Shown: piece after piece, positions 10,519 to 62,245 of the stretch
How the letters are laid out: every line of letters begins with the position of its first letter
Numbering within the stretch: position 1 is the stretch's first letter
DNA from: Gammaproteobacteria bacterium
GTDB taxonomy: Bacteria > Pseudomonadota > Gammaproteobacteria > Steroidobacterales > Foliamicaceae
Length of the DNA: 64,000 nt
Reading direction: 5' to 3'
Assembly (NCBI GenBank): GCA_965116895.1
Contig: OZ220729.1
Span: 1,882,122-1,946,121 of the forward strand
The notes under the pieces: generated by a model
What the model was told of the DNA's origin: nothing
Databases searched by the model: none
What the model saw: only the letters and a program-made list of their open reading frames with translations
Made by a program: the position numbers and the translations under genes

Positions 10519-10544
10519 GTGTATTGCCGGCAGAATCGCCCGGC

Positions 10545-23787: not shown

Positions 23788-24359
23788 TCCGCCGCCGTCT
23801 CGCCGCCGGACTCGGCCTCGGCGGCGTCCGCCACTTTCGCGGCTTCCTCAATCAGGCCGGTACGCAGGTACCGCACGATGCGCCAGCGGTCTTCGCTCGA
23901 CATCGCGAAACGGTAGCTGGGCATGATCACGCCGCCGTGCGTGATCGTGTAGTAAAGCTGTCCGTCGGTCTGCTGCTGCACGTAGGGCAAGGTCAGGTCC
24001 ATGGGCTGCGGGTTGTACTTGAGTCCCACGCTGCCGTCGCCGGCGCCCGCCACGCCGTGGCATACGCGGCAGTAAATGTCGTACATTTCCGCCGCGCGGC
24101 CATCGTCCGGATCTTCCGCGGCAAGCGGATTGCTCAGCTGCTCTCCGGCCTTCAGCCGCGCGCGCACCAGCTCCGCGAGATCGGCCGGCCCGTCCAGTTC
24201 GCCGCCGTCGGCAGGGACGGATTCCGCCGGCAATTCGACCGTTGTCTCCTGCGTCTTGACACTCACCTGGTCCTTCATGTCGTCGTTCCACGGCAATGCG
24301 CCGGCCACGCCCGACACGACCAGCGTGGCGGTGAGCAGGGCGATAGCGACGCGGCTCAT
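23784..24359 (-). CDS. actE: Alternative complex III subunit ActE (monohaem cytochrome c)
   Basis: Real start is ATG at 24359 (MSRVAIALLTATLVVSG signal/anchor), not the track start at 24647. Single CRVCHG haem motif. Overlaps the actD stop (ATGA). Confidence 0.75.
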   Translation of the reverse strand: MSRVAIALLTATLVVSGVAGALPWNDDMKDQVSVKTQETTVELPAESVPADGGELDGPADLAELVRARLKAGEQLSNPLAAEDPDDGRAAEMYDIYCRVCHGVAGAGDGSVGLKYNPQPMDLTLPYVQQQTDGQLYYTITHGGVIMPSYRFAMSSEDRWRIVRYLRTGLIEEAAKVADAAEAESGGETAAE

Positions 24360-24850
24360 TCCGACTGCTCCCGCTCGATCGACTCGGCGCCCGCGGCGCG
24401 CAGGATCTCCTCGGCCTCGGGCGCGCCGGGCCCGGCCACCGAAATCACGAAGCGGTCCACGTTGCTGGAGGCCCGGTAAGTGCGGTCCCGCCACGCCGGC
24501 AAGCGGGCCACGACGAAGAAGCCCAGCAGCGTCATCAGCGTGCCCAGCAGGATGGTGCTCTCGTAGGTAATCAGCAGGTACGGAGGCAGCGCGATCACGG
24601 GCCGCCCCGCGGTCGGCAGGATGAAGCGCGTGGCGGTCCACACGCACAGCGTGAATCCGCCGATGGCGCCCAGGATGCCTCCGAGCAGCGTGAACACCCG
24701 CACCATGGACTTGCCCAGCCCCAGCGCTTCGTCGGCCCCGTGCAGCGGGATCGGAGAATACAGATCCACTCCGGCAACGCCCTTCTCGCGCAGGGCACGG
24801 GCGGCGTCCAGCGCGGCGTCTTCGTGCGCGAATGAGGCCAGCAGCGTCAT
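24356..24850 (-). CDS. actD: Alternative complex III subunit ActD (DUF3341-like)
   Basis: 164 aa: soluble N-domain (LASFAHEDAALDAARALREKG) plus two TM helices. The position between the NrfD-like and cytochrome c genes is characteristic. Confidence 0.7.
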   Translation of the reverse strand: MTLLASFAHEDAALDAARALREKGVAGVDLYSPIPLHGADEALGLGKSMVRVFTLLGGILGAIGGFTLCVWTATRFILPTAGRPVIALPPYLLITYESTILLGTLMTLLGFFVVARLPAWRDRTYRASSNVDRFVISVAGPGAPEAEEILRAAGAESIEREQSE

Positions 24851-26205: not shown

Positions 26206-26207
26206 GG

Positions 26208-27056
26208 TCAGGTCACCGCCTCGCTCGCCTGTTCCGGCCACATGACCGGGCTTGCCGCGTGGCTATCGGACTCGTCGCCGTGATGGTCGTCATCGTCGTG
26301 GCCGGCTGCCGGTTCCCGCGCGTTCTTGAGGTAGACGACGCTGGGATGGGTATTCAGCTCTTCCAGCACCTTGTAGGCCCGCGGGTCCTGGAGCTTGCGC
26401 GAAACGGCGCTGTCGGGGTCGTTGCGGTCGCCGAACACGATCGCGTCGGTCGGGCAGGCCTGGGCGCAGGCCGGCTGGGCCTCGCCGTCGGCCACCCGGC
26501 GGTCCTCGTCGCGCGCCAGGTCCTTGGCGCGGTTGATGCGCTGCACGCAGAACGTGCACTTTTCCATCACGCCCTTCTCGCGCACGGTCACGTCCGGGTT
26601 GAGTTGCTGCTCCAGCGGCTCGTCCCAGGTGTAGGTGAACCAGTTGAAGAACCGAACCTCGTAGGGGCAGTAGACGGCGCAGGTCCGCGTTCCGATGCAG
26701 CGGTTGTAGACCTGCGCGTTGAGGCCGTCCTGGTTGTGATAGGTGGCGAACACCGGGCAGGCGATTTCGCAGGGCGCCTCGTCGCAGTGCTGGCACAGCA
26801 TCGGAATGAAGTTCAGCCGCGCGTCGGGATACTCGCCGTCCCAATAGCGCTCGATGCGCAGCCACTTCATCTCGCGGCCCTGCCGCATCCTCTTTTCGCC
26901 CACGATGGGCAGGTTGTTTTCCGCCTGGCAGGCCACCACGCAGGCCTCGCAGCCCGTGCACCGGTCGAGGTCCACGGCCATGGTCCAGTGGTATTCGAAT
27001 TCCGTGTAGTAGCCGGCGGTGCGGTACTCGCGCAATTTGTCCCTTATCGTGCTCAT
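26208..27056 (-). CDS. actB2: Alternative complex III subunit ActB2 (4Fe-4S cluster protein)
   Basis: Cys clusters CTGCEACVVACQ, CQHCDEAPCEIACP, CIGTRTCAVYCP, CTFCVQR, CAQACP. His/Asp-rich C-tail. Confidence 0.85.
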   Translation of the reverse strand: MSTIRDKLREYRTAGYYTEFEYHWTMAVDLDRCTGCEACVVACQAENNLPIVGEKRMRQGREMKWLRIERYWDGEYPDARLNFIPMLCQHCDEAPCEIACPVFATYHNQDGLNAQVYNRCIGTRTCAVYCPYEVRFFNWFTYTWDEPLEQQLNPDVTVREKGVMEKCTFCVQRINRAKDLARDEDRRVADGEAQPACAQACPTDAIVFGDRNDPDSAVSRKLQDPRAYKVLEELNTHPSVVYLKNAREPAAGHDDDDHHGDESDSHAASPVMWPEQASEAVT

Positions 27057-27060
27057 CGTC

Positions 27061-29247
27061 CTAGTGCTCGTCGTCCGGTCCGAGAATCTGCCGGCCCAGC
27101 GTGCGGCTGACGCCGCTGGTCCTTGTCATGCGTACGCGTTCGCCGGTCTTGCGCAGCGCCACGCGGGTGGCGGCCCAGGCCAGCGCCCCCGTGGATCCGT
27201 CGCTTTCCGCCGCGAGCAGCGAGGCCGGGTTCACCCCGCGCCCCTGCGCGTAACGACCATTGGCCTGGTGCCCCTGCCCCAGCGGCATGGCAATCACGTC
27301 GGGACGCACGCCCGGATACCGCAGCGCCGGCGCGGTCACCGTTCCGGCCTGCGAGCTCACTTCCACGACGTCGCCGTCCTTGAGGTCCAGCTCATCCGCG
27401 GTCGCCGGGTTCACTTCCACCCAGCTTCCGTAGGCAACGCTGGTCTGCGGGTCCGGCAGTTCCTGTATCCAGGGCAGCCTGGCGCCCTTGCCCTCGCGCA
27501 ATCCCGGCGTCTGAAAGGGGTGCAGCACGAAGGGATACTCGGATGCGTCGCCCGCAAACCGCGGCTCTGAAGGCGCCGCGGGAGCCGGGGCATCGGACGA
27601 GAACTCATCGGCCATTCCCTCCGCCAGGTCGGCAACCCAGACGCCCTGCTGCTGCACCTGCCGGAAACCGGCGTCGAAATCGTCCTCAATGCCGAGGTTC
27701 TTCCATGCAGTCGCCCACTCGGATCGGGTATAGGCTTCGGCGTCTTCATGGGGCAGCGCCTCGGCAAGAGCGCCGCCGGACCGTTGCGCAAGCTGCAGGA
27801 GGATATCGGTAACCGACAGCGTGTCATACAGGCGCCTTTGCACCGGCTGCTGCAAGGTGACCGACAGCTTCCCGTTTCCGGGAAGTGAAATGTCGTCGTC
27901 CCAGGTCTCGAAAAAAGTGTCCGTAGCCAGGATCCAGTCGGCCGCACTCGCCGTATCGCTGGGAAAGCTGTCCAGCGCCACAACCAGTTCGGCCCGGTCC
28001 AGGGCGCCGCGCAAGCCCAGGGAGTCCGGCAGATCGTGCAGCGGATCCACGCCCGCCACGATGACCAGCGACACTTCGCCGTTGGCCGCCTCGGCCACGA
28101 ATTTCTCTATCTCGCTCAGCGTGGAGAATCGGGGCGCGTGCGCCAGGTTGGGCCTGACGGTGGTCCCGGCGGCGCCCAGAATGCGGTTCAGCGCGGCCAC
28201 GCAGGTCAGCGCTTCGGTCGCGTTCACGCCCGCGCCCGCTGCTCCGCCTCCCAGGACCAGGGGTGTCCTGGCGGCGGCCAGCCGCTCGGCCAGCGCGCGC
28301 AATCGTTCGGCGGGCAGGTCCGCCAGCGCCGCGGCCTCGTCAAGGCTCAGGGCGCCGGACAGGCCTTCCCGGCCTGCCGGTCCCTCGTCCGCACCGCCCC
28401 GGCCATGCAACTCCGCGGCCAGCGCCAGCGCCAGCGCGCCTTCGGTGCCCGGCCGCGCGGGCAGCCACTCGTCCGCATTGGCGCCGGTCAGCGACATGCG
28501 CGGTTCGACCTGCACGAGGTATCCGCGATGGCCGTCGCCGCCCTGGCGAAACTCGCCGTAGGCCTTGGAATAGCCCACCGGCGAGCGCCATGCGCCGAGA
28601 AAGTCGGCGCCGAAGGAAACGACCAGGTCGGCTGATCCGATGTCGTAGTGAGGAAGGCCATTGAAGCCGTACATCGCCTTCGCGGCCGCCAGCTCGGTTG
28701 CCGGCGTGTCCAGCCCCAGACGCAGCACGTTCGCGCCCAGCGCTTCCCGGAACTTGTCCAGCGCCTCCTCGCCGGAACTGAGCAGGCCGCCGGTGAGGAT
28801 CCAGGTGCGGCTACCCATCCCCGCGGACTGCATCGCCCCCAGGCGCGGCGCGATGGCCTCAAGGGCCTCGTCCCAGGAAGATTCCACAAAGCCGCCTTCC
28901 CCGTCGGACCGCATGGGCGCACGCAGCCGGTCGGGGTTGTACAAGGCGTTGAGGCTGGCCTGGCCCAGCGCGCAGGTGCCGCCCCGGCTGACCGGATGAT
29001 TGGGATTGCCCTCGATCTTCTTGGCCCTGCCCTCGCGCACCCGAACCGAAATGCCGCAGCCGGCCGGGCACATGCGGCACAGGGTGTTGTACCAGGTGTC
29101 CATGCCCGGGGAGAAATCCTCGGGTGGAATATGCGTGGAGAGCAGCGTTTCCAGCGGACGCTGGTTCACTTCTCCGAGCAGAAGGCCGGTCCCGACGCCG
29201 ACTCCGCCGCCGGCCAGGTACTTGAATATGTCCCTGCGGTTCAGCAT
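27061..29247 (-). CDS. actB1: Alternative complex III subunit ActB1 (molybdopterin-oxidoreductase-like, Tat signal)
   Basis: Twin-arginine signal MLNRRDIFKYLAGGGVGVG. N-terminal Fe-S motif CRMCPAGCG. 728 aa with an MopB-like fold. Confidence 0.8.
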   Translation of the reverse strand: MLNRRDIFKYLAGGGVGVGTGLLLGEVNQRPLETLLSTHIPPEDFSPGMDTWYNTLCRMCPAGCGISVRVREGRAKKIEGNPNHPVSRGGTCALGQASLNALYNPDRLRAPMRSDGEGGFVESSWDEALEAIAPRLGAMQSAGMGSRTWILTGGLLSSGEEALDKFREALGANVLRLGLDTPATELAAAKAMYGFNGLPHYDIGSADLVVSFGADFLGAWRSPVGYSKAYGEFRQGGDGHRGYLVQVEPRMSLTGANADEWLPARPGTEGALALALAAELHGRGGADEGPAGREGLSGALSLDEAAALADLPAERLRALAERLAAARTPLVLGGGAAGAGVNATEALTCVAALNRILGAAGTTVRPNLAHAPRFSTLSEIEKFVAEAANGEVSLVIVAGVDPLHDLPDSLGLRGALDRAELVVALDSFPSDTASAADWILATDTFFETWDDDISLPGNGKLSVTLQQPVQRRLYDTLSVTDILLQLAQRSGGALAEALPHEDAEAYTRSEWATAWKNLGIEDDFDAGFRQVQQQGVWVADLAEGMADEFSSDAPAPAAPSEPRFAGDASEYPFVLHPFQTPGLREGKGARLPWIQELPDPQTSVAYGSWVEVNPATADELDLKDGDVVEVSSQAGTVTAPALRYPGVRPDVIAMPLGQGHQANGRYAQGRGVNPASLLAAESDGSTGALAWAATRVALRKTGERVRMTRTSGVSRTLGRQILGPDDEH

Positions 29248-29251
29248 GGCG

Positions 29252-29821
29252 TCAGTAGTGGCAGGTGAGGCAGTCGCGGCCGTTGGCCACGTCTTCCTCG
29301 GTGTGGCAATCGATGCACCAGGGCATGCGAAGGTTCTCGTTCAGATCGACGCGCCGCGTAACGCGAGCCATTTCCTCCACGGGTCCGTGGCAGGTCTGGC
29401 ATTCAACCCCGCCGCGGATATGCGGCTTGTGCCGGAAATGGACGAAATCCGGCGTATCGTGGACCTTCACCCAGGGGATGCCTTCTCCGCGCTCCCAGTA
29501 GTCGAAAAGCTTGACCACGTCGGGCTTGTCGCGAACCTCGGTGAGGCCCTTGTGGCAGCCCACGCAGGTCTCTACGCTGGGCACGCCAGCCGTCGCCGAG
29601 CGGCCGGCCCAGGAGTGGCAGTACTCGCAGGGAATCTCGTTTTCGCCGGCGTGAACCTCGTGGCTGAATTCGATCGGCTGGACCGGCGTGTAGTCGTTCA
29701 GCATGGCGCCGTGGGCCCAATGTCCGATGTAAGCACCGACAATCCCCAGCGCGGCAACAATCAAGCCCTTGATTACCGGCCGCGCGGCCTCGAAAACACC
29801 AATGGACACGAACAACTCCAA
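29252..29821 (-). CDS. actA: Alternative complex III subunit ActA (pentahaem cytochrome c)
   Basis: Five CxxCH motifs (CEYCH, CVGCH, CQTCH, CIDCH, CLTCH) after an N-terminal membrane anchor. Start is TTG 29821 or GTG 29809. Confidence 0.8.
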   Translation of the reverse strand: MELFVSIGVFEAARPVIKGLIVAALGIVGAYIGHWAHGAMLNDYTPVQPIEFSHEVHAGENEIPCEYCHSWAGRSATAGVPSVETCVGCHKGLTEVRDKPDVVKLFDYWERGEGIPWVKVHDTPDFVHFRHKPHIRGGVECQTCHGPVEEMARVTRRVDLNENLRMPWCIDCHTEEDVANGRDCLTCHY

Positions 29822-44504: not shown

Positions 44505-44647
44505 TACGGCAGTCCTCCCTTGCCCGGAATCATACTACGCGGCCGTTTTGTGCGGCCACGTCGTTGAACTTCAGCGATGGCGCGCGGAATTCCGTTTAGA
44601 CTTAGCGCCCCGCCGGTCGGAGAGACCGGGAAACTGAGGGGTACTTG

Positions 44648-45658
44648 GTGAGCGAGGAAATCATTGCGCCGGACGGATCGCCCTTGCGGGCCGCCGTTAT
44701 CGGCTGCCGCGACGTCGAAAAGTCACTGGCCTTCTACCGGGACCGCATCGGCCTGTCGGTGCTTGCCGACGAGGTCCTGGGCGGCCCGGCCTTTCGCAGC
44801 TTCTGGAACCTGAACGGCGGAGCCTCCGCCCGAGCCGTCCTGCTGGGGCAAGGCGACGAGGGGGTCGGGCAGGTCCTTCTGCTCGACTTTCATCTGCCCG
44901 AAGGCAGCGCCAGTCCCGTGGAAATCCGCGATCGCAGCATTGTCCGGGCCTATGGATGCTTCAATCTCAATTTCTATACTGCCGACATTCACCGCGATTT
45001 CGAGGGCTTGAAGAAAGACGGCTACGTCCTCTGGTCCGATCCCGTCCAGCACTTTTTCGGGGACGACGTGGGCGATCCCATAGAAGGCATTTTCGAAGGT
45101 CCCGACCGCGTGCCGATCAACCTGGTGGAACTCGCCACCCGCGACACGGCGACGCGCGTGGGCCAGATGCGCGCCTACGTCGAGCAGCGCGGCTATACCG
45201 ATGCCGGCTTCACGCCCATCGTGACCAGTTCGCATGGCGTGGATTCGAGCGAACGCGCGATGGCCTTTTACGAACAGGTCCTGAACATGAAGCCGCTGAT
45301 CGACGAGGTCCTGGGCACGCCGGAGTCCAACCGCCTGCTGAACCTGCCCGAGGACGCGAAGACCCGCGTCGTGTTCATGCAGGGCAACCACATGTTCGGC
45401 AAGGTGGTGCTGAGCCAGCCGCTGAATTACGAGTGCGAGTCCCTGATCGAGCGGGCCAAACCCCCGAACGTCGGTTACCTGGCACAAACCTTCGCGGTCG
45501 GCGACCTGGAGGAGGCGGCCGGCAGGTGCAGCGCGCTGAAAGCGGAGGTCCTGAGCAAGCCCCAGGAAACTCCATGGCCCGGTTCGGGCAGCGTTTCCGC
45601 GATGCTGGTGCGGAACCCCGGCAGCGGAGCGCTGCAGATATTGATGGAGGATGCGTAA
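44648..45658 (+). CDS. Two-domain VOC (glyoxalase/bleomycin-resistance/extradiol-dioxygenase) family protein 1
   Basis: GTG 44648 lies 6 nt after GAGGGG; TTG 44645 is also possible. Repeated beta-alpha-beta-beta-beta modules (LRAAVIGCRDVEKSLAFYRDRIGL.. and IVTSSHGVDSSERAMAFYEQVLNM..). Confidence 0.65.
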   Translation: MSEEIIAPDGSPLRAAVIGCRDVEKSLAFYRDRIGLSVLADEVLGGPAFRSFWNLNGGASARAVLLGQGDEGVGQVLLLDFHLPEGSASPVEIRDRSIVRAYGCFNLNFYTADIHRDFEGLKKDGYVLWSDPVQHFFGDDVGDPIEGIFEGPDRVPINLVELATRDTATRVGQMRAYVEQRGYTDAGFTPIVTSSHGVDSSERAMAFYEQVLNMKPLIDEVLGTPESNRLLNLPEDAKTRVVFMQGNHMFGKVVLSQPLNYECESLIERAKPPNVGYLAQTFAVGDLEEAAGRCSALKAEVLSKPQETPWPGSGSVSAMLVRNPGSGALQILMEDA

Positions 45659-46614
45659 TGAGCGTTTACGGCATGACTTCGGTGACCGTCGGCGTAAGCG
45701 ACATCGATGAGTCGCTGGGACTCTTTCGCGACGTGATTGGACTGCAGGTGGAGAGCGACGGCGAGGCGCCGCGCGCGCTCCTCGATGCCTGGGGCCTGCC
45801 GCAGCACGTAACGGCGCGGCTGGTCGAACTGTCCTGCCGCGGCTATCCCGCCGGGCATCTGCGCCTGGCGCAGTATTCGCCCGCCGTGACCGAGGCCGTG
45901 CGGCTGGATCATGGAGCTGGCGCGGTCGATGGTTCCACCGACATCGGCCCCAAGGCGATCGATTTCTATGTTCCGACGCCAATGAGCGCCGCCGTCGAAG
46001 CGATCACCGGTGCCGGATACACTTTCCGCTCCGAGCCGATCCGCTACGAATTGGGCGATATCGAAAGCGAGGAGTGCCTGTTTACGGGGCCCGACGGCGT
46101 GCCCGCCCTGCTGATGATCGGCCATAGACACCCGCCGGAGGCGATGCGCGCCCTGCCGGCCGGCGTCCGTTTTTCCGAAATCGCCACGACGTCCGTCATA
46201 TGCGCGGATCCCGAAGCGGCGCGTGCGTTGTATTGCGACGCACTGGGACTGGAATCCGGTACCGACGCCTGGGTGGCGGAAGAAAACCTGGATCTGGCAC
46301 GCCGCCTCACCGGCGTCCCGAGCTGCACGGGCATGTATTTCCTGCTGGTCCGCGCACCGGGCGAGCCCAGCGGCAAGCTCCTGTTCGTGCATTTCGCCGG
46401 CGTCCCGAGCAAGCGGCTCACCGGGAGAATGCGACCCGGAAAGCTGGGCGTGAACCTCTTCAGTTACAGGGCAAGCGACCTGGACGCCACGCTGGCGAAG
46501 GCCTGCGAATCCGGCGGAACTCTCCTGCGCGGGCCAACGCAAGTGGGCGGAACGCGCGTGGCGCTGCTGCTGGGCGCCAACGAGGAATTGCTGGAGCTGA
46601 CCGAAGGGGACTGA
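45658..46614 (+). CDS. Two-domain VOC family protein 2
   Basis: ATG at 45658 overlapping the previous TAA (TAATG). MTSVTVGVSDIDESLGLFRDVIGL.. and a second module IATTSVICADPEAARALYCDALGL... The track ORF 44956..46614 is an out-of-gene extension. Confidence 0.65.
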   Translation: MSVYGMTSVTVGVSDIDESLGLFRDVIGLQVESDGEAPRALLDAWGLPQHVTARLVELSCRGYPAGHLRLAQYSPAVTEAVRLDHGAGAVDGSTDIGPKAIDFYVPTPMSAAVEAITGAGYTFRSEPIRYELGDIESEECLFTGPDGVPALLMIGHRHPPEAMRALPAGVRFSEIATTSVICADPEAARALYCDALGLESGTDAWVAEENLDLARRLTGVPSCTGMYFLLVRAPGEPSGKLLFVHFAGVPSKRLTGRMRPGKLGVNLFSYRASDLDATLAKACESGGTLLRGPTQVGGTRVALLLGANEELLELTEGD

Positions 46615-46615: not shown

Positions 46616-47464
46616 TTGTCGACGGAAACCCGCCGGGGCGGTCCGGTCGATCTGCGCCGGCTGGAGTCCGAGGCAATACTCATCCTGCGCAAAGCGGTCG
46701 AGGCGTTTCGCCGGCCGGTGCTGCTGTTCTCGGCCGGCAAGGACTCGGCGGTGATGTTGCGCCTCGCCCAGAAGGCATTCGCGCCTTCGCTGCCTCCGTT
46801 TCCTCTGCTGCATGTGGACACGAACTGGAAGTTCCCGGAGGCCTATGAGTACCGGGACCGGACCGCGAACGAAGCGGGCATGAAGCTGATCGTCCACGTC
46901 AACCGGGAAGGACTTGCGCGCGGAATCGGGCCGTTCAGCCACGGCGCGGAGACCCATGTCCGTGTCATGAAGAGCGAGGCTCTGCAAGAGGCCCTGGAGC
47001 GCTACGGTTTTGACGTCATGATCGACGGGGCGCGGGGCGACGAGGAGCGATTCAGAGGCGACTCGCGACGCTCCGACACGCCCTCCGGCGGCGGCGGGGC
47101 GGCGCGCGCGTTCCCGCTGCGCAACTGGACCGAGCTTGATGTGTGGCGCTACGTTCAGGCGGAAGACATCCCGCTGCCGACGCTCTACTTTGCCGCGCCG
47201 CGGCTGGTGGTGCGGCGGGACGGACTGCTGATCGTCAGGGCCGACGAGCGAATGACGCTGGCGAACGACGAGAAGGCCACGATGCGCACGGTGCGGTTCC
47301 GCACGCTGGGGTGCTGGCCGCTGACGGGCGCCGTGGAATCGGATGCGGCGGACGTTGCAGGCGTTCTGCGCGAACTTCGCCGCGCCCGGACTCCCGAGCG
47401 GTCGTGGCGCGCCATCGACCGGCCGGCCGCCGAAGCGGCCGGAAAGCGGGAGCCGCGCCCTTGA
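46616..47464 (+). CDS. CysD-like PP-loop ATP pyrophosphatase (sulfate adenylyltransferase subunit 2 homolog) lacking an internal conserved segment
   Basis: TTG start after GAAGGGGA. PP-loop LLFSAGKDSAVML, PFPLLHVDTNWKF, VRFRTLGCWPLTGAVES. The region between GARGDEE and FPLRNWTE is about 20 residues shorter than canonical CysD (comparison from memory). Confidence 0.7.
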   Translation: MSTETRRGGPVDLRRLESEAILILRKAVEAFRRPVLLFSAGKDSAVMLRLAQKAFAPSLPPFPLLHVDTNWKFPEAYEYRDRTANEAGMKLIVHVNREGLARGIGPFSHGAETHVRVMKSEALQEALERYGFDVMIDGARGDEERFRGDSRRSDTPSGGGGAARAFPLRNWTELDVWRYVQAEDIPLPTLYFAAPRLVVRRDGLLIVRADERMTLANDEKATMRTVRFRTLGCWPLTGAVESDAADVAGVLRELRRARTPERSWRAIDRPAAEAAGKREPRP

Positions 47465-48048
47465 ACGCGCGAGACCCAGGCCCTGCCCCCGCCGGGAGGG
47501 GAAGGCGTCTGCACGAAGCCCGAAAGCCCTGCATTCTCTGGTTGACCGGCTTGCCCGCCGCGGGAAAGACGACCCTCGCCCGGGAAATCGCCCGCAGGCT
47601 TGAAACGCTTAGCGTCCGCGCCTTCGTGCTGGACGGCGACGACCTCCGCCTGGGTCTCAACAGCGACCTCGGGTTCAGCCGCGCGGCCCGCGACGAGAGC
47701 GTTCGCCGAGCCGGCCACGCCGCCAAACTCCTTCTCGACGCCGGAACGATCGCGGTGGCTGCCCTGATCTCGCCCTTCCGCGACCACCGCCAGCGGATCC
47801 GCGAACTGGCCGGCCCCGACCGGTTCGTGGAGATCTTCGTCGACGCGCCGCTTCATGTGTGCGAACGGCGCGATCCGAAGGGGCTTTACGCCAGCGCGCG
47901 GGCCGGCGATATCCAGGACGTCACCGGCATCGATTCACCCTACGAACCGCCTGAAAATCCGGATATCCGGCTGCGGTCTGCGGAAAGCCCACCGGACGAA
48001 CTGGCGGGCCAGGTGATCCGCTACCTTAAGGAAAGGGAATACATATAG
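47461..48048 (+). CDS. cysC: Adenylylsulfate (APS) kinase
   Basis: TTG at 47461 overlapping the previous stop (TTGA). P-loop LWLTGLPAAGKTTLA, LDGDDLRLGLNSDLGFS, ISPFRDHR, VCERRDPKGLY, GIDSPYEPPENPD. Confidence 0.85.
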   Translation: MNARDPGPAPAGRGRRLHEARKPCILWLTGLPAAGKTTLAREIARRLETLSVRAFVLDGDDLRLGLNSDLGFSRAARDESVRRAGHAAKLLLDAGTIAVAALISPFRDHRQRIRELAGPDRFVEIFVDAPLHVCERRDPKGLYASARAGDIQDVTGIDSPYEPPENPDIRLRSAESPPDELAGQVIRYLKEREYI

Positions 48049-48054: not shown

Positions 48055-48164
48055 GCGTCCTGGTTCGCCCCATGCCGCGGCGGAGCGTCGGCGGCAGGAG
48101 CCGCCGCCGAGCCCCAGGGATGGGTTCATGCGTCTCCGACGCGGCATGGGGCGAACCAGGACGC
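48055..48164. terminator. Perfect 25-bp inverted repeat with ~60-nt spacer (contains an inner GC hairpin); putative bidirectional terminator or REP-like element
   Basis: 48055-48079 gcgtcctggttcgccccatgccgcg is the exact reverse complement of 48140-48164. Inner hairpin cggcggc-agga-gccgccg. It sits between convergent cysC and TBDR-4 and touches the TBDR-4 stop codon. Confidence 0.5.
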
Positions 48165-51298: not shown

Positions 51299-52116
51299 AC
51301 ATGAATTTTGAGCGAGTCGCAAAACTGGGCGCGGAGGTTTCGGGCGTTGAGCTGACGCCGGACCTTGCACAGGATGTCATCGACGAGATAGAACAAGGAA
51401 TACTGGAACACAGAGTTCTGTTTTTCCGGGACCAGGAACTGAACGGAGAAGAACTCGTCGACTTTTCCCGCCGCTTTGGCGAGAGCTTCGTCCAGCCGGC
51501 GCTGGCGCACAAGTACCAGGAACTGCTGTTTCTGGAGAACGACAAAAGCAAGCCGCCCACGCTCAACACCTTTCACCAGGACATGACCGGCCTGGCGCAA
51601 CCCCCGGCGCTGCACATGCTGCACGCGCTGATCGTGCCCGATGGGGGCGGCGACACCATGTGGGCCTGCAACTACAGCGCCTACGAATCCCTCTCGGACG
51701 AAATGAAGCGGATACTCGGCAGCCTGACGTGCACCCACACCATACTCGGGTACTACGAACCGATCGTAAGGAACTGGGAGAACGCCGAGGAGACGCTGAA
51801 GGAGTTCAGGGAGATATTCCCGCCGGTGTCGCATCCGCTGGTGAGGACCCACCCGCAAACCGGCCGCAAGTCACTGTTCGTCAACCGCTTCTTCACCAAT
51901 TTCATCAACGGTTTCACTCCCCAGGAAAGCGAAAACCTGCTTCAGTTCCTGTACAAGCACATCGAAACGCCCGAATTCTGCGTGCGGCTGCGCTGGCGTC
52001 CCGGCACCCTGGCGATCTGGGACAACCGCTGCACCTCCCACTACGCGCTGGCCGACTACTGGCCGCAGCACCGCAAGATGCAGCGCGCCTCGGTCTCGGG
52101 CGACACGCCCTTCTAG
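51295..52116 (+). CDS. Fe(II)/2-oxoglutarate dioxygenase, TauD/TfdA family
   Basis: ATG overlapping the previous stop (ATGA). HxD in TFHQDMTG, GGGDTMWA, distal His in RCTSHYA. 273 aa. Confidence 0.8.
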   Translation: MNMNFERVAKLGAEVSGVELTPDLAQDVIDEIEQGILEHRVLFFRDQELNGEELVDFSRRFGESFVQPALAHKYQELLFLENDKSKPPTLNTFHQDMTGLAQPPALHMLHALIVPDGGGDTMWACNYSAYESLSDEMKRILGSLTCTHTILGYYEPIVRNWENAEETLKEFREIFPPVSHPLVRTHPQTGRKSLFVNRFFTNFINGFTPQESENLLQFLYKHIETPEFCVRLRWRPGTLAIWDNRCTSHYALADYWPQHRKMQRASVSGDTPF

Positions 52117-53651
52117 CCCAATTCCTCGCGCAGGCCCTTGACGAGGCCGACGCACATGCACAGCAGCACAAGAGTAAAGGGCAGGCCCACCGAAAGCGTC
52201 AGCGCCTGCAGCGAGGCCATGCCGCCGCCCAGCATCAGCGCCATCGCGGCGAGGCCGGCCAGCAGGCACCAGAAGGCGCGTTGCTGAACCGGCGCGTCCA
52301 TCTTCCCGCCGGCCGTAATGGTGTCCACTACCAATGATCCCGAGTCGGCCGAGGTGACAAAGAAGATCGTGATCAGGAGCACGCTGACGGCCGAGACGAT
52401 TCCGGTCATCGGCAAAGGCTCCAGCATCTTGAACAAGGCCAGTTCGGGCACCGATTCCGCCACCCCGGTATAACCGCCGGAGAAGTACTGGTCCAGCGCG
52501 GCGCCGCCGAACGTCGCCATCCACAGGATTCCGATGATCGTCGGGACGATCAGCACCCAGGTGATGAATTCGCGCACGGTGCGCCCAAAACTGATGCGCG
52601 CGATGAACATGCCCACGAACGGCGCCCAGGCGACCCACCAGGCCCAGTAGAAGGTTGACCAGTCGCGCACGAAAGCCACGTCCTCGCGGCCGATCCAGTT
52701 GCTCAGTGCCGGCAGGTAATAGACATAATCGACGCCCGCGTTGGCGATCGTCGCGAGAATCACCAGCGTGGGTCCCGCGACCAGGACGAACAGCCACAAC
52801 AGGGCCGCAAGCACCATGTTGATCCAGCTCAGGCGCTTGACGCCCTTGTCCAGCCCGGCGATGACGGACGCCAACGCGATGCCGATGATGACCATGATCA
52901 GAACGGCCCTGGTGGCGACGGTCGCGGGAATCCCGAACAGGTATTGCAGTCCGCCGGCGATCTGTTCGGCGCCGAAGCCCAGCGACACCGCCAGCCCGAA
53001 CAGGGTCGCCAGCACCGCCACGATGTCCACGGCGTGACCGAAGGGCCCCCAGACCGACTTGCCGATCAGCGGGAAGAAACCGGAGCGCATCGTCAGCGGC
53101 ATGCCGCGATTGAAACAGAAGAATGCCAGCGACAGGCCCGCGACGGCGTATATGGCCCAGGCGTGCAGCCCCCAATGCAGGATCGCCGCGGACATGCCGA
53201 CGGCCCGCGCGGTCGCGGTGTCGGCGGGATCGACGCCGAGCGGCGGCGCCAGGGTGTGGGTCACGGGCTCAAGGACGCCGAAGAACATCAGGCCGATGCC
53301 CACACCCGCCGCGAACAGCATGGCCAGCCACGCGGAATAGCCGTACTGGGGCGCCGCGTCCCGTCCCCCGAGGCGAATCCGTCCCAACGGAGACAGCGCG
53401 AGGCCGAGGCAGAACAGGACGAAGAGGTTCGACGCGGCGAAGTAGAACCAGTCGAACGTCGTGGTCGTCCAGACCCTCAGATCAGCGAACAGCGTCGCCG
53501 CCTGCTGCCGGAACAGCAAGGTTCCGATCACCAGTATGACCACCAGCGCGGCGGAAACGATGAAGACCGGATTGTGGATGTCGAGCCCAAGGAAGCGGAT
53601 ATTCTGCTCGCCGATCTTGTGGCCGATATCGGGCGCCGCCTTGGAGTTCAT
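52113..53651 (-). CDS. BCCT-family (betaine/carnitine/choline) transporter
   Basis: ATG at 53651 (MNSKAAPDIGHKIGEQNIRFLGLDIHNPVF). BCCT-like core including the Trp-rich segment FYWAWWVAWAPFVGMFIARIS. The track extension to 53903 is not credible. Confidence 0.85.
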   Translation of the reverse strand: MNSKAAPDIGHKIGEQNIRFLGLDIHNPVFIVSAALVVILVIGTLLFRQQAATLFADLRVWTTTTFDWFYFAASNLFVLFCLGLALSPLGRIRLGGRDAAPQYGYSAWLAMLFAAGVGIGLMFFGVLEPVTHTLAPPLGVDPADTATARAVGMSAAILHWGLHAWAIYAVAGLSLAFFCFNRGMPLTMRSGFFPLIGKSVWGPFGHAVDIVAVLATLFGLAVSLGFGAEQIAGGLQYLFGIPATVATRAVLIMVIIGIALASVIAGLDKGVKRLSWINMVLAALLWLFVLVAGPTLVILATIANAGVDYVYYLPALSNWIGREDVAFVRDWSTFYWAWWVAWAPFVGMFIARISFGRTVREFITWVLIVPTIIGILWMATFGGAALDQYFSGGYTGVAESVPELALFKMLEPLPMTGIVSAVSVLLITIFFVTSADSGSLVVDTITAGGKMDAPVQQRAFWCLLAGLAAMALMLGGGMASLQALTLSVGLPFTLVLLCMCVGLVKGLREELG

Positions 53652-55618
53652 ATCGCGAAGCGCCGCCGCACGTCTTCGCCAAGCGCATCCCTGAGCGGGT
53701 CGAGCCAGGATTCGTAGTTGCGCCAGTAGTCCAGTCCCGCCTTGAAAATCGGCTGGCGGACCTGCTCCGAACTCGGGGTGCGCACCGCCCTTTCCGTGCG
53801 GTGAAAGCTCAGGCACCCCGGTTCGAAGTCGAGTCCGCAGTGGTCGAGAATCCGGCGCACCTGGGTTTCGAGGTCGCCCACCACTTCCTCGTACTGGACG
53901 CACAGCACCTTGCCGGGAAGCACCGTGTCCCAGTGGTCCATGAGTTCCACGTAATCGCGATAGTACTGTCCGAGGTCCGCCAGGTCGTAGGTGAATTGCT
54001 GGCCTTCGGCGAAGAGCTGCTTGTAGCCGCTGAAGCCGCAGGCCATGGGGTGCCGCCTGGCGTCGATGATCTTCGCATTGGGCAGCATCAGGTGAATCAG
54101 TCCGATGTGGCGGAAGTTGTTCGGCATCTTGTCGACGAAAAACGGAGCGTCCTGGCGGTGAATCCGGGTGTCGTCGATGTACTGCTGCCCGAACTGTCGC
54201 AGTTCCTCATCCGACAGTGTCGCCAGGATCTCGGGATAGTCCGGTTCGGGCCCGCTACGCCCGCGCCGTCGCAACTGCTGCGCCAGCGACAGGACGTTCG
54301 GCAGTTCCAGGGTTCCGTCCACCCGCGAATGGGATGAAAGAATCTGTTCCAGCAGAGTTGATCCGGCGCGCGGCAGCCCGACAACGAAAATCGGATCGCC
54401 GGCGGAATGCCCCGCCTCCGCGCCGCGCGACAACATACCGGCGACGCACACCCGATGCTGGGCGCGCAGTTCCTCCGTCATCTTGTCCGCGTCGTAGCGG
54501 CTCGCAGCCTTCTTCGAGCGGTTGCCCTGCTCGTAGAACCGGAACGAGGTCTCGAAGTCTTCGCGGTCCTCGTAGGCCTTGCCCAGGGCGAAGTTCAGAT
54601 GCACGCGGTCGGCATGGGACAGATCATTCTTCCCGGCCTGCGCATGCATCCGCTCGAGTTCGCGGTCGCTGAACGAATAGACCTTCAGGTTGGACAGCGA
54701 ATACCAGGCTTCGCCGTGGCGTGGCTGGCTCGCGAGCGCCGCCCGGTAGGAGGCGACAGCCTCGTCGTACTGGCCGTGGGTCTTGAGCGCATGGCCCTTC
54801 GAGGTAAGCGTGACCGGGTCGCCCGGAATCTTCTCCAGCACCCTGTCGAAAAGACCCAGCGCCTCCTCGTAGTCGCCGGTCTGCATGCATTCGATCGCGT
54901 AGATCGACTGGAACTGCGGATTGCCGGGCGAGGTCTCAAGCAGCAGCCTGGCCTGCTCGAGGGCCTTTTCGAATTTCTGGCGCTTCCTGAGCGCCTGGAT
55001 GTAGTCCATGTGCACCCGCACGTTCTTCGGATCGAACTGGTGCGCCGACTCGAGCAGGAATTCTGCGTCCGCCAGGACCCCGAAGCGGATGCCGATGTCG
55101 GCCAGCAGCCGCATGGCTTCCACGTGGTGCGGCACTTTCCTGAGAAACTTGCGGCACAGGTCCTCCGCCTTGAGCAGCTTGCCCTGGCTCATGAGGTCGA
55201 GGACGATGACGAGCGGCCGCGGCAACTGCTCAAAGTGGTCAATCTGGGCTTTCGCTTGCGCAGCCTCCCGGAGGCGCCCGCTCCGGGCCAGGATGTTCAG
55301 TTGCCCCCTCCAGCTCGCCACCAGCGCCGGGTTGAACCGGCACGCCTGCGCATACGCCCGCAACGCCTGGGCCGGACGGCCCATGTCGCGGTACGCGTGG
55401 CCCTCCTCCTGGTGTGCCCGGCCGTTCTCGGGCGCGAGGGCTTTCAGCCTGGCGAGCTGCGCCAGCGCCGCATCGAACTCGCCACGGTAGCGGCGGCAGA
55501 CCGCGCTCATGTACAGCGCGTCGGTGTTTTCCGGCTCGTCCCTGAGGATGTCATAGAGGTCGGCCAGCGCTTCGTCAAACTGCTTCCCGACGATCCTGGC
55601 CTGAATGGCATCCAGCAC
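53648..55618 (-). CDS. TPR-repeat protein fused to a PAPS-type sulfotransferase domain
   Basis: GTG start. The N-terminal ~380 aa are TPR-like repeats. The C-terminal domain has a 5'-PSB-like loop VVGLPRAGSTLLEQILSSHS and a Sulfotransfer-type core (FVDKMPNNF, RHPMACGFS). The stop overlaps the BCCT start (ATGA). Confidence 0.8.
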   Translation of the reverse strand: MLDAIQARIVGKQFDEALADLYDILRDEPENTDALYMSAVCRRYRGEFDAALAQLARLKALAPENGRAHQEEGHAYRDMGRPAQALRAYAQACRFNPALVASWRGQLNILARSGRLREAAQAKAQIDHFEQLPRPLVIVLDLMSQGKLLKAEDLCRKFLRKVPHHVEAMRLLADIGIRFGVLADAEFLLESAHQFDPKNVRVHMDYIQALRKRQKFEKALEQARLLLETSPGNPQFQSIYAIECMQTGDYEEALGLFDRVLEKIPGDPVTLTSKGHALKTHGQYDEAVASYRAALASQPRHGEAWYSLSNLKVYSFSDRELERMHAQAGKNDLSHADRVHLNFALGKAYEDREDFETSFRFYEQGNRSKKAASRYDADKMTEELRAQHRVCVAGMLSRGAEAGHSAGDPIFVVGLPRAGSTLLEQILSSHSRVDGTLELPNVLSLAQQLRRRGRSGPEPDYPEILATLSDEELRQFGQQYIDDTRIHRQDAPFFVDKMPNNFRHIGLIHLMLPNAKIIDARRHPMACGFSGYKQLFAEGQQFTYDLADLGQYYRDYVELMDHWDTVLPGKVLCVQYEEVVGDLETQVRRILDHCGLDFEPGCLSFHRTERAVRTPSSEQVRQPIFKAGLDYWRNYESWLDPLRDALGEDVRRRFAI

Positions 55619-58442: not shown

Positions 58443-59984
58443 TTATCGCCCCATGGCAGCCCGGGACAGAAGGATCGGGAACCCGGACCGCACGCCAGCG
58501 TCGATCTCGTCGCTGACGTGGCGCGGCGCCGGATCGGCGAGGACTTCCCGCTTCTTTTCGGCAGCCCGATTCAGCAGCGCCGGCTTGCCTTTTTCTTCCC
58601 AGACGGTCGGGCTGTCCCGGTCGCTGAAGTCGGGGTATATGTACTCGCTTTGCATCACCTGCAGGGTACTCCCCGAACCCAGGTAATGCCCTTCGCCGCC
58701 GGCGCAGATCTGCTCGATCTCGGCGAAGCTCAGCGTCTCCGGGCTCACTTCGATCCCCCGTGTAACGCGCCCGACGGCGCCAAGAACGTCGTTGTCCAGC
58801 AAGAGGCTCTCCGGGCAGGTCCCCAGCAGGCTGGCGTACATGCCGGCGGATTCATAAACGATGTTCGCCCCGGACAAGGCGGCCGCCAGCACGGTTGCCG
58901 CGCGTTCCGCCCCGGCCTGAAAGTCGGGGAACTTGGCGTCGGTCATGCCGCAGGCGGTGCCGAAGGGAAGGTCGAAGTGGAGGCCGAGCTGGGCGCAGGC
59001 GGCGGACAGCAGACCTTGCTCGGGCGAGCCGCCGCTCATCGCCCCGGTGCGCAGATCCGAAACAAACGGCCAGGCGCCGAGAATCGCCGGCGCGCCGGGT
59101 TTGATCGCGTTGACATAGACCAGCCCACCGAGACACTCCGCCCAGGCTTGGGAAACCGCCCCGGCCAGATAGGCGGGGGTCGTTGCGCCGGCCTGCCCCG
59201 CCGACAGCAGCAGCACCGGCATGCCGCCCTCTACGGCCACGCGCAGGCACTCGAGGGCGTCGGTGGCGAACTTCATCGGCGGCACCACAAAACAGTTGGA
59301 CTGGCTGACGAAGGGACGCGCCCGCCACTCGGCCTCGCCGCCGGCGATCAGATGCAGCATCTCGAGGCTCTGCTCCACGTGCCCGGGCAGCGTCCAACTC
59401 GAACCGACGTGCTTGCTGGTGCCCATCACCGAGCAGTAGAGGGTATTGATGTCCATTTCGTAGTTGTCGCGAATGTCCCGGGGCACGCAGGTGCGCTGGA
59501 ACATGTGAATGTGCTCGCAGGTGTCGACGATACGCGCCATGTCGTACAGATCCTGCGCCAGCGAATCCCGGTAAAGGTTGTTTTCCGTGTCGGCCACCAT
59601 GACCGCGGCGCCGGCGGTGGAGAAGTGCACTCTGGCGCCGCTCAGATCGAGGTCTCTGCGCGGATCCTGCCCATGGAGCACCAGATTCCGCCGGGCCAGT
59701 TCGAGGGTTCGCTCGACCAGGCTTGGGGGCATGCGCAGGCGCCCGTCCTCGCCGAGCACGGCGCCGACCGCCGTGCAGGTCTCGATGCAGTGAGGCGTGG
59801 CGTCGGCGAATCCCACCCTGTCGAGAATCTCGAAGGCATTGTCCGCTATGGCCGTAACGCCGTCGGCGGACAAGGGCCGGTACTGTCCTCCGGCATGCCC
59901 CGGCCGAACCGGCTTGATCGCTTCGGCAAGCGGCGCGGCGCGCTCGGCCCTTCTGGCCCGTCTACCGCCCGATCGTCGAGGCAT
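58443..59984 (-). CDS. MttB-superfamily methyltransferase, non-pyrrolysine type (quaternary-amine:corrinoid methyltransferase-like)
   Basis: 513 aa uninterrupted ORF with no in-frame TAG. MttB-like TIM-barrel segments (FEILDRVGF, HFSTAGAAVMV, PVLLLSAGQAGATTPAYLAG, SGANIVYESAGM). Confidence 0.8.
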   Translation of the reverse strand: MPRRSGGRRARRAERAAPLAEAIKPVRPGHAGGQYRPLSADGVTAIADNAFEILDRVGFADATPHCIETCTAVGAVLGEDGRLRMPPSLVERTLELARRNLVLHGQDPRRDLDLSGARVHFSTAGAAVMVADTENNLYRDSLAQDLYDMARIVDTCEHIHMFQRTCVPRDIRDNYEMDINTLYCSVMGTSKHVGSSWTLPGHVEQSLEMLHLIAGGEAEWRARPFVSQSNCFVVPPMKFATDALECLRVAVEGGMPVLLLSAGQAGATTPAYLAGAVSQAWAECLGGLVYVNAIKPGAPAILGAWPFVSDLRTGAMSGGSPEQGLLSAACAQLGLHFDLPFGTACGMTDAKFPDFQAGAERAATVLAAALSGANIVYESAGMYASLLGTCPESLLLDNDVLGAVGRVTRGIEVSPETLSFAEIEQICAGGEGHYLGSGSTLQVMQSEYIYPDFSDRDSPTVWEEKGKPALLNRAAEKKREVLADPAPRHVSDEIDAGVRSGFPILLSRAAMGR

Positions 59985-60043
59985 GGCTGCTCTCCGTTAC
60001 ATGCGAGTTGAAAGACGCCGAAAGCATAGCTTGTTCCCGGGGG

Positions 60044-60943
60044 TCAGCCCCGACGGCGACGGCGGCCCCGACGGGCCCCGCGAGCCCCGGCCGGCGCACC
60101 GGGTTCGCGGTACTTGCCGATCCAGCGCGCGCAATCGGGATCCTTGCCCATCATGACATCGGCGCCGAGGACCGCCTGCACGACCTCGACGTGCAGCGGA
60201 TTGGTGATCGCCGAAGTCATGCCGGCGCCGATCGCCATGGTAAGGAATGCGCTGTTGATGCCGTTGCGATTCGGCAGGCCGAAACTCACATTGGACGCGC
60301 CGCAGGTGGTATTGACCTTCAGTTCCCCGCGCAACCGCCTGACCAGGTGCATGACCTGTTTGCCGGCGGCGTTGATCGCGCCGATCGGCATGACCAGAGG
60401 ATCGACCACGACATCGCTCGGGGAAATGCCGTGGTCCTGCGCCCGTTCGACGATTTTTCTGGCCACTTCGAAGCGCACGTCCGGATCCTCGGAAATGCCG
60501 GATTCATCGTTGGAGATGGCCACCACCGCGGCGCCGTGCCGGGCTACCAGCGGCAGCACAGTCTCCAGCCTGTCCTCTTCGCCCGTGACCGAGTTGACCA
60601 GCGCCTTGCCCCGATAGACCGCCAGTCCGGATTCCAGCGCGGCGACGATGGACGAATCGATAGACAGCGGCACATCGGTTACCGACTGCACCAGCCTGAT
60701 GGCCTCGGCCAGCATGGCGGGTTCGTCCGCCAGCGGGATTCCGGCGTTCACGTCCAGCATGTGGGCGCCCGCCTCAACCTGGGCGAGGGCGTCCGCGACC
60801 ACGCGATCGTAGTTGCCCGCCTTCATTTCCTCCGCAAGGATTTTCCGCCCGGTGGGGTTGATACGCTCGCCTATGATCACGAAGGGCCGGTCGAAACCGA
60901 TCACGACCTCCCGGCTGGCGGAGGCGACTACCGTGTCCGTCAT
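60044..60943 (-). CDS. Pterin-binding methyltransferase (methyltetrahydrofolate:corrinoid methyltransferase, MetH/AcsE/MtrH-like)
   Basis: FVIIGERINPTGRK, GAHMLDVNAG, PLSIDSS, ALVNSV, CGASNVSFGLP: the pterin-binding (DHPS-like) barrel signature. Confidence 0.8.
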   Translation of the reverse strand: MTDTVVASASREVVIGFDRPFVIIGERINPTGRKILAEEMKAGNYDRVVADALAQVEAGAHMLDVNAGIPLADEPAMLAEAIRLVQSVTDVPLSIDSSIVAALESGLAVYRGKALVNSVTGEEDRLETVLPLVARHGAAVVAISNDESGISEDPDVRFEVARKIVERAQDHGISPSDVVVDPLVMPIGAINAAGKQVMHLVRRLRGELKVNTTCGASNVSFGLPNRNGINSAFLTMAIGAGMTSAITNPLHVEVVQAVLGADVMMGKDPDCARWIGKYREPGAPAGARGARRGRRRRRG

Positions 60944-60958
60944 GCCTCGGCCACCGGC

Positions 60959-61279
60959 TTACGCATCCGGCGTCTCCTCCAGACCGTGATTGCGAATGAG
61001 CGCCAGCAGGCTCTCATCCGAGTATCGCGCTTCGATCCCGGCCGCAAGCCTTTCGGCGACCGCCTGCAGATCGTCCGCCGCGGCATCCGACCCGGGCCTG
61101 ATCGGTTCCCGCGCCCATTCGCTGAGATAGGCATCGGCGCTTTGCTTCTTCGCCCGCATGGCGGCGCGATCGATGGCGTTCTGGAAGCGCCCGCTCAACC
61201 GCGCCCTTGCGCGCAGCCTGCCCTTCCTGACAATCACCTGTGCGGGAATGTCGCGCCACTTCACCAGGACGGCGTTCAT
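60959..61279 (-). CDS. Small conserved protein often found in corrinoid-methyltransferase clusters (tentatively the family annotated 'virulence factor'); function unknown
   Basis: ATG 61279 (MNAVLVKWRDIPAQVIVRKG...) or ATG 61318. The family assignment is from memory of the WRDIPAQV-type N-terminus and is tentative. Confidence 0.45.
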   Translation of the reverse strand: MNAVLVKWRDIPAQVIVRKGRLRARARLSGRFQNAIDRAAMRAKKQSADAYLSEWAREPIRPGSDAAADDLQAVAERLAAGIEARYSDESLLALIRNHGLEETPDA

Positions 61280-61333
61280 GGCGTCAGCCCGCTTCCTCCC
61301 GGCGGACCCGAATCCCATTCGGAGCGACCCGCG

Positions 61334-62059
<726 letters not shown>

Positions 62060-62072
62060 GCCAACTACCTCC

Positions 62073-62107
62073 AACCACCGAACTTCAGCCTCGAAAGTTC
62101 AGTGGTT
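62073..62107. promoter_or_regulatory. Imperfect 13-bp inverted repeat in the divergent corrinoid-operon / DMGDH intergenic region (candidate operator or 5'-UTR hairpin)
   Basis: aaccacCgaactt (62073-62085) and aagttcAgtggtt (62095-62107) match at 12 of 13 positions, with a 9-nt spacer. It starts 14 nt upstream of the corrinoid-protein ATG. Confidence 0.3.
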
Positions 62108-62245
62108 CCAGGACGGGATCCCGGCCGATCCTGCGGCCCACGGCGGCATATTAGCAGTCATGAATCGACATCCGCAATGGAAAAACGCGACTATTGCAAG
62201 TGAGCGCCAACTTCCGTGAGAATCGCTTCAGGCCCGGAGGGCGCC

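Follow-up and report, generated by a model that had tools for sequence, protein, structure and literature searches.

Comparison with described sulfate-activating systems

The CysD-CysN pair is a textbook metabolic enzyme driven by a translation-factor-like GTPase, and its mechanism has been studied since the early 1990s. To our knowledge, the parts of CysD that receive the signal of the GTPase, and the usefulness of CysN-free chemistry, are not settled at the residue level. Here, we describe a short CysD-like gene followed by a stand-alone cysC, the gene for adenosine 5'-phosphosulfate (APS) kinase, in 64,000 nucleotides of DNA from a Gammaproteobacteria bacterium of the family Foliamicaceae (GenBank assembly GCA_965116895.1, contig OZ220729.1, positions 1,882,122 to 1,946,121). 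This whole 64-kb stretch is referred to as the window, and positions are counted from its first nucleotide. Judged by sequence comparison, there is about an even chance that the short CysD is a functional, CysN-independent ATP sulfurylase that is coupled to the APS kinase and makes 3'-phosphoadenosine 5'-phosphosulfate (PAPS).

A lineage that remained under selection while it shed CysN and two conserved segments of CysD points to candidate coupling elements. If the interpretation is true, the family would provide a ready-made 'uncoupled' reference enzyme as well as a two-gene PAPS synthase of new composition. The short proteins are named in NCBI only as 'phosphoadenosine phosphosulfate reductase family protein'. 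With the present annotation, pathway reconstructions of abundant sponge symbionts may overlook sulfate activation or wrongly rate CysDN as incomplete.

The short CysD has the same PP-loop fold as the CysD of CysD-CysN complexes (E. coli CysDN; P. syringae, PDB 1ZUN). The SxGKDS motif, the HVDT motif, the loop arginines, and RFRTLGC(W/Y)PLTGA are common to the canonical and the short form. In contrast to canonical CysD, the short form is devoid of a 34-residue insertion and of the C-terminal tail, carries Gly where GARRDEE has its second Arg, and has no adjacent CysN (12 loci).

NodP/NodQ and RaxP/RaxQ are dedicated CysD and CysNC copies that feed PAPS to specific sulfotransferases. They likewise combine a CysD-type enzyme and an APS kinase near a sulfotransferase, and the window pair plausibly serves sulfation as well, and not cysteine synthesis. 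In NodQ and RaxQ, however, the CysN GTPase is fused to the kinase, whereas the kinase of the window is a stand-alone protein of 195 residues with no GTPase nearby. Therefore, the window protein is not a NodP/RaxP-type copy. A second copy of this kind, as brought up in the preliminary description of the locus, is unsupported, and no sign of a canonical copy was seen in these genomes, of which no genome-wide search was made. The pair may be the general or only sulfate-activating system of the cell and not a second, dedicated one.

In Sat-type sulfurylases and PAPS synthases, the unfavourable equilibrium of sulfate adenylation is handled by product removal. The logic proposed here is the same as that of Sat with APS kinase and of the bifunctional PAPS synthases, that is, a G-protein-free sulfurylase pulled by a coupled kinase. 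Sat (PF01747) nevertheless has an unrelated fold that is not of the PP-loop type, and its motifs are absent from the window.

CysH, the other main branch of PF01507, likewise has no CysD insertion separating the Arg-loop from the FPL..W strand, and HMMER aligns the linker region of the short form to the APS reductase 4BWV with only a 4-residue gap. However, CysH is only 20-25% identical to the short form, and the C-terminal half of the short form is CysD-like. The window protein was considered as a CysH and rejected: its scores lie far below the cut-offs of the CysH models (NF002537, 54.5 vs 154 bits; TIGR00434, 28.8 vs 165), and the ECGLH cysteine motif is missing.

Identity of the short CysD

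The sole Pfam match of the short-loop open reading frame (ORF) is PF01507 (PAPS_reduct), at 150 bits against a cut-off of 22.5. The closest solved structure in a phmmer search is P. syringae CysD (1ZUN_A, E = 5.9e-79), and the identity to canonical CysD is 53-59%. As the preliminary description had stated, the protein carries SAGKDS, LLHVDT, and FRTLGCWPLTGAVES. Within the window, SAGKDS is the sole match to the PP-loop pattern that falls in a predicted gene; two others lie in non-coding frames. The C-terminal motif of the CysD type, RFRTLGC(Y/W)PLTGA, is present in the window protein. It is part of the signature VRFRTLGCWPLTGAVES, most positions of which are invariant or nearly invariant in short and canonical CysD, while two positions vary more. 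The features of the locus are listed in Table 1.

The AlphaFold2 (AF2) model of the short CysD has a predicted local distance difference test (pLDDT) score of 84.7 and a predicted template modelling (pTM) score of 0.83. The pLDDT falls below 50 only at residues 1-8, in the linker (residues 149-159), and in the tail (residues 271-282). A Foldseek search with this model returned 1zun_A as the top match and CysH-type reductases next. 1zun_A comprises approximately 204 ordered residues and has ATP-gamma-S bound.

Table 1. Features of the short cysD-cysC locus and of its surroundings in the window.
Feature	Positions	Strand	Remarks
Two tandem two-domain VOC/glyoxalase-fold genes	44645..46614	+	Pfam Glyoxalase; tightly packed upstream of cysD
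Short-loop CysD-like gene	46616..47464	+	282 aa; begins at a TTG that immediately follows the stop of the VOC gene upstream
PP-loop SAGKDS	46730..46747	+	Residues 39-44; invariant or nearly so across short and canonical CysD
Arginine-rich loop GARGDEERFRGDSR, retained	47027..47068	+	R147 and R151 conserved; second Arg of GARRDEE is Gly
Replacement linker RSDTPSGGGGAA, 12 aa	47069..47104	+	GGC-rich tract; stands for the canonical 34-aa insertion ..HRWDPKNQRPELW.LYN..
C-terminal CysD signature VRFRTLGCWPLTGAVES, retained	47291..47341	+	Residues 226-242
Degenerate C-terminal tail IDRPAAEAAGKREPRP	47411..47461	+	Replaces canonical IDHD..GSME.KK.EGYF (C-terminal alignment)
cysC, APS kinase, 195 aa	47461..48048	+	TTG start overlaps cysD stop TGA (47462-47464), TTGA
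Inverted repeat, 31 nt	48055..48164	.	97% complementary, 48-nt loop; between convergent cysC and TonB-dependent receptor gene
BCCT transporter	52113..53651	-	TIGR00842, 457 bits vs 407.55
TPR-sulfotransferase	53648..55618	-	PF13469 Sulfotransfer_3, 176 bits, and TPR repeats

Lost and retained segments

When the 120 best database relatives of the window CysD are aligned with MAFFT, the span between GAR and WTE is 36 residues long in the window protein vs 58 in every canonical CysD. The net deletion is thus 22 residues (34 replaced by 12), close to the roughly 20 residues estimated at first reading. HMMER splits the match to 1ZUN into two parts (query 12-151 on 1ZUN 27-166, and query 160-274 on 1ZUN 197-315), and at the break 8 query residues face 30 residues of 1ZUN. 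The missing block of 34 residues reads 'VFSFR..HRWDPKNQRPELW.LYN...GES.', and the 12-residue RSDTPSGGGGAA is found in its place. The GGC-rich replacement had been recognized correctly in the preliminary description, but the extent of the loss needs to be redrawn: the arginines of the Arg-loop are in fact kept, and the real loss is the 34-residue insertion. RFRGDSR of the window CysD aligns with canonical RSRAKER with both arginines retained, R147 being invariant and R151 at least 90% conserved among 63 sequences. Reading of the DNA at the deletion site shows that the canonical segment is not encoded in any other frame there. A frameshift or alternative frame behind the missing segment is ruled out by this reading and by the recurrence of the architecture in independent assemblies. 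The replacement linker is of low complexity and GC-rich, and both its length and its sequence vary across the short clade, in which the GAR..WTE span is 28-57 residues long.

A further loss concerns the C-terminus. The alignment with CysD had been taken to run from end to end; the canonical tail IDHD..GSME.KK.EGYF is also gone, and this had been overlooked. The short proteins form two subclades, A and B (see below). Subclade A, to which the window protein belongs, has lost the tail completely, and subclade B retains only the terminal G/D-Y-F. In the canonical tail, M294, E295, K297, K298, G301, Y302, and F303 are invariant. An alignment of 34 diverse canonical CysD proteins has 19 invariant columns within residues 143-183 and another 7 within the last 10 residues, which ranks both deleted elements with the best-conserved parts of the canonical protein.

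The short clade has retained the PP-loop, HVDT, both arginines of the loop, FPL..WTE.D.W.Y, and RFRTLGCWPLTGA. The clade has also fixed the changes Y38F, S111A, D116R, and R141G (GARRDEE to GARGDEE) at sites that are otherwise invariant or nearly so. Residue 141 is Gly in 100% of the short clade and Arg in 100% of canonical CysD.

In the AF2 model of a canonical CysD monomer, confidence is lowest at the two regions that the short form has lost (pLDDT 53-71). This is suggestive only, and it would fit segments that become ordered on a binding partner or substrate. Papers that cite 1ZUN were consulted for the CysD-CysN interface and do not describe it at the residue level.

Pairing with cysC and absence of a nearby CysN

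The cysC product is recognized by PF01583 (195.7 bits), TIGR00455 (213.4 vs a cut-off of 138.7), and NF003013 (218.1 vs 163), and its motifs are intact (P-loop GLPAAGKTT and LDGDDLR). The overlap of cysC with cysD on TTGA was seen correctly in the preliminary description. An APS kinase gene lies directly downstream of short cysD in 12/12 distinct loci. These are the window and the homologous loci L001, L004, L005/L010, L006, L009, L011/L089, L012, L013, L014, L090, and L091; they comprise six short-form loci from a scan of one genome per GTDB species, together with loci from exact-protein look-ups. At all seven homologous loci with gene calls, cysD and cysC overlap by 1 or 4 nt. The division of the CysD proteins into two subclades is repeated in their CysC partners, and therefore the pair is passed on as one unit.

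The stand-alone CysC could have arisen by deletion of the GTPase part of a cysNC gene. The evidence on this point cuts both ways: the closest canonical CysD relatives sit in cysD-cysNC operons, which favours such an origin, but outside the clade the proteins closest to this CysC are a mixture of stand-alone kinases and CysNC fragments (52-57% identity).

No CysN gene accompanies the pair. In all six frames of the window, neither the CysN motif GHVDxGKS (G1) nor a genuine DxPGH (G3) occurs, and a tblastn search of the window with two CysNC proteins from canonical loci matched the kinase domain only. The earlier observation that neither strand of the window carries a CysN ORF thus holds. Six-frame scans of the window likewise gave no Sat motifs (GRDHAG, QxRNPxH) and no CysH catalytic motif EC[GS][LI]H (ECGLH), and a Pfam survey of its predicted genes gave no CysN, Sat, or CysH family. 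An intact-looking CysC without Sat, CysN, or CysH in 64 kb implies a local source of APS.

The same correlation is seen across loci. A GTPase within 10 kb on either side was found at 0/12 short-form loci (tblastn, E <= 1e-3). By comparison, CysN adjoins cysD in 71/74 canonical loci of GTDB species representatives, and the other three loci end within 443 bp of the gene. Among the best 80 GTDB loci, the six of the short form are each followed directly by an APS kinase gene, and none has a GTPase inside 10 kb.

Family, selection, and distribution

The short form is represented by more than 40 protein clusters at 90% identity, from independent assemblies that include chromosome-level metagenome-assembled genomes (MAGs). 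About 45 of the 120 best database matches share the short variable linker and the signature GARGDEERFR. In a tree built on 259 well-aligned columns, with the linker and tails excluded, the short forms are one clade apart from the sampled canonical CysD proteins. The proteins of subclade A are 76-100%, and those of subclade B 57-68%, identical to the window protein.

The ratio of nonsynonymous to synonymous substitution rates (dN/dS, Nei-Gojobori) is approximately 0.15-0.21 in the core (0.070/0.417 for the window vs L001, 0.073/0.374 for the window vs L009, and 0.038/0.178 for L001 vs L009) and approximately 0.4-0.8 in the linker (20-codon block, residues 145-164). The core is under purifying selection, and the replacement linker is near neutrality. 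The relaxed selection that had been contemplated for the gene is accordingly not found in its core.

In the scan of one genome per GTDB species, at least six species with the short form occur among the best 80 CysD-like loci. Each of the six is a gammaproteobacterial MAG; two carry the label Candidatus Foliamicus, a taxon placed in an order of its own, Ca. Foliamicales, and one bears an isolate name of the SB0673 type. Their accession and isolate naming suggests a sponge origin. A profile search of 1.84 billion representatives at 50% identity returned one short-clade representative, P0029. Canonical spacing was found in 77/78 assessable top representatives, the other short one being P0280. This protein was considered as an independent second lineage of loop-less CysD and set aside: it is a singleton from a contig of 1.7 kb, with canonical CysD proteins of 311 residues as its closest relatives. 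The short-CysD family is, as far as the sampled sequences indicate, rare and confined to one lineage.

The profile search was topped by P0244, a protein of 503 residues that contains one and a half tandem copies of canonical CysD and owes its rank to this duplication. It is probably an assembly artefact.

Proposed mechanism and alternative explanations

The anatomy of the gene, its conservation, the selection on its core, the strict adjacency of cysC, and the lack of a neighbouring CysN are observed; catalysis, independence from a CysN located in another part of the genome, and the part played by the lost elements in coupling are inferred. The following scheme is proposed. Sulfate would be adenylated to APS by the retained PP-loop core. 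Conversion of APS to PAPS by the translationally coupled kinase, together with pyrophosphatase, would pull this unfavourable step forward, and GTP hydrolysis by CysN would not be used. PAPS would then go to sulfotransferases such as that of the TPR-sulfotransferase/BCCT pair 4 kb downstream. The lost W-D-P..Q-R-P-E-L-W insertion and the SME-KK-EGYF tail would be the means by which canonical CysD is coupled to CysN. A tentative extension of the scheme, which we would place slightly on the doubtful side, is that the short form represents a naturally GTPase-free CysD and that the 34-residue insertion and the tail it has shed are the elements that couple canonical CysD to GTP hydrolysis and make it dependent on this hydrolysis.

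Several points weigh against this scheme. According to Leyh and co-workers, E. coli CysD reportedly needs CysN, and GTP is said to stimulate APS synthesis more than 100-fold. We know of no CysN-free CysD that has been characterized so far. In the searchable literature, which lacks most of the enzymology papers, no description of a CysN-less CysD or of Ca. Foliamicus was found. The changes Y38F, S111A, D116R, and R141G could alter or abolish sulfurylase chemistry. A sulfotransferase gene is immediately adjacent to the pair in only 3/12 short-form loci. The window protein also scores below the cut-offs of two CysD models, NF009214 (317.5 vs 413 bits) and TIGR02039 (316.1 vs 396.6 bits). The only NCBIfam CysD model that it passes is NF003587 (308.6 vs 195 bits), which is permissive; a canonical control, P0056, scores 518, 490, and 478 bits on NF009214, TIGR02039, and NF003587, respectively. 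The window protein most resembles CysD in the way it would work, and we would call it a member of a divergent CysD subfamily. Because the insertion, the tail, and the adjacent CysN are missing and two of the three cut-offs are not reached, we would not class it with ordinary CysD equivalogs.

These departures raise the possibility that the protein is a neofunctionalized CysD-like enzyme that does not adenylate sulfate. Its substrate might be a different oxyanion or acceptor, it might catalyse the reaction in reverse, or it might assist CysC without a catalytic role of its own, with APS coming from elsewhere. The fixed substitutions at invariant or nearly invariant sites, among them R141G in the arginine-rich active-site motif, would fit such a change of function, as would the loss of the most conserved CysD segment, the scores under the equivalog cut-offs, the NCBI name that says only 'PAPS reductase family protein', and the varied contexts of the gene (VOC dioxygenase-like genes, FMO, SRPBCC fusion). 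We nevertheless regard a change of function as unlikely: in all 12 loci the gene forms an obligate, coupled pair with that of an intact APS kinase, which speaks for APS as the product; the protein retains the PP-loop, HVDT, both arginines of the loop, and the CysD-specific RFRTLGCWPLTGA; and the CysH motif ECGLH is absent. A rather improbable explanation is that the protein is an ordinary CysD that relies on a CysN GTPase from another part of the genome, such as that of a canonical cysDN(C) operon. Paralogous CysD/CysN sets do exist (NodPQ, RaxPQ), the closest canonical relatives are found in cysD-cysNC operons, and the absence of CysN is established for the window and the 10-kb flanks and not for whole genomes. 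Yet the two elements and the adjacent CysN were lost in exact correspondence (0/12 vs 71/74 loci with CysN), and canonical cysD and cysN are almost always adjacent. A weak further argument comes from OZ250178.1, OZ253475.1, OY762933.1, and OX639965.1, chromosome-level MAGs with the short form, two of which are labelled Ca. Foliamicus: each occurs once among the best 80 CysD-like loci of the GTDB scan, the pattern of which required LGCW.

The preliminary description had left open two options, a decaying paralog or a CysN-independent enzyme supplying a specialised pathway. Decay is contradicted by the monophyly of the family, the core dN/dS, the pLDDT of 84.7, and the co-inherited cysC. A pseudogene, or a sequencing or assembly artefact in the GGC-rich tract, has the low complexity and GC-richness of the linker in its favour, and the isolated short-loop P0280 on its 1.7-kb contig does look like a one-off defect. 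For the window gene, however, we consider either of them highly improbable: its architecture recurs in the clusters and chromosome-level MAGs described above, the core dN/dS is low, the frame is intact and the fold prediction confident, and no alternative frame encodes the missing segment. The CysN-independent enzyme for a specialised pathway is favoured by the comparative evidence, namely by the correlation with CysN across loci and by the sulfotransferase genes adjacent to the pair in L006, L012, and L013; we infer such a role and do not regard it as observed.

Genomic neighbourhood and a possible link to sulfation

The two VOC genes, cysD, and cysC probably form one operon. The order VOC-VOC-cysD-cysC recurs in L001 and L009, at 89-94% identity. 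Upstream of the VOC genes lie divergent genes for a methyltransferase and a TonB-dependent receptor. Downstream of cysC in the window are genes for a receptor, a hydrolase, and TauD, followed by the TPR-sulfotransferase gene. An NCBIfam search of the VOC, methyltransferase, and small neighbouring genes gave no informative match from which a sulfated product could be guessed. The inverted repeat behind cysC has no T-tract, and a consensus scan found no intrinsic terminator there; the repeat is possibly a transcription stop.

The genes for the TPR-sulfotransferase and for the BCCT transporter, which is of the betaine/choline/carnitine type, are located 4-6 kb downstream of the window pair and overlap on the minus strand, where the stop TGA of the sulfotransferase gene shares ATGA (53648-53651) with the ATG of the BCCT gene. 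Therefore, co-translation of the two is implied. The TPR-sulfotransferase is a likely consumer of PAPS. Its orthologs (79-86% identity) lie immediately beside cysD-cysC in L006, L012, and L013, and the order sulfotransferase-BCCT-TonB receptor-MttB is kept in these three loci. This setting gives a hint that a quaternary amine or a similar metabolite is sulfated in the symbiosis.

The window orthologs of BCCT, sulfotransferase, and TonB receptor in L006, L012, and L013 are 79-91% identical, whereas the cysD-cysC pairs of these loci, which belong to subclade B, are only 57-67% identical to the window pair of subclade A. The discrepancy points to displacement of the pair, to unequal loss of ancient paralogs, or to rapid evolution of the module.

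The other loci present different settings. In L004, L089, and L091, the pair has a housekeeping setting (mutY-yggX / pair / DoxX..prs), from which it follows that it may be all that the cell has for activating sulfate. In L090, it lies within a mobile region. In L005/L010, an SDR gene is followed by an N-terminal fusion of SRPBCC to short CysD. Because the genomic contexts vary, the cysD-cysC module is regarded as a putative portable PAPS supply.

The fused protein of L005, P0021 (positions 10001-11299, equivalent to L010; Ca. Foliamicus sp. OZ250178.1), has 432 residues, with an N-terminal SRPBCC/Polyketide_cyc2 domain (PF10604) before the short CysD. Either the fusion is real or the gene call is an artefact.

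Other genes in the window

An MttB-family methyltransferase is encoded at 58443-59984 (-). It scores 311 bits against the 525-bit cut-off of the trimethylamine (pyrrolysine) equivalog and is likely a non-Pyl quaternary-amine methyltransferase. In L006, the neighbourhood equivalent to that of the MttB gene contains corrinoid-binding and pterin-binding genes.

A full-length peptidase of family M2, resembling angiotensin-converting enzyme, is encoded at 13666-15492 (+; PF01401, 738 bits) and adjoins a POT-family peptide transporter gene at 12227-13699. An Alternative Complex III-like cluster occupies 24356-29821 (-) and comprises genes for a multihaem cytochrome c, a molybdopterin-oxidoreductase-like protein, a 4Fe-4S protein, an NrfD-like protein, and ActD. 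Two ORFs, 22528-23787 (-; 419 residues) and 60008-62203 (+; 731 residues), have coding-like GC content at third codon positions (GC3) and no Pfam match at E <= 1e-6. Homologs of the latter ORF are present in L006 and L013, with 67-70% identity.

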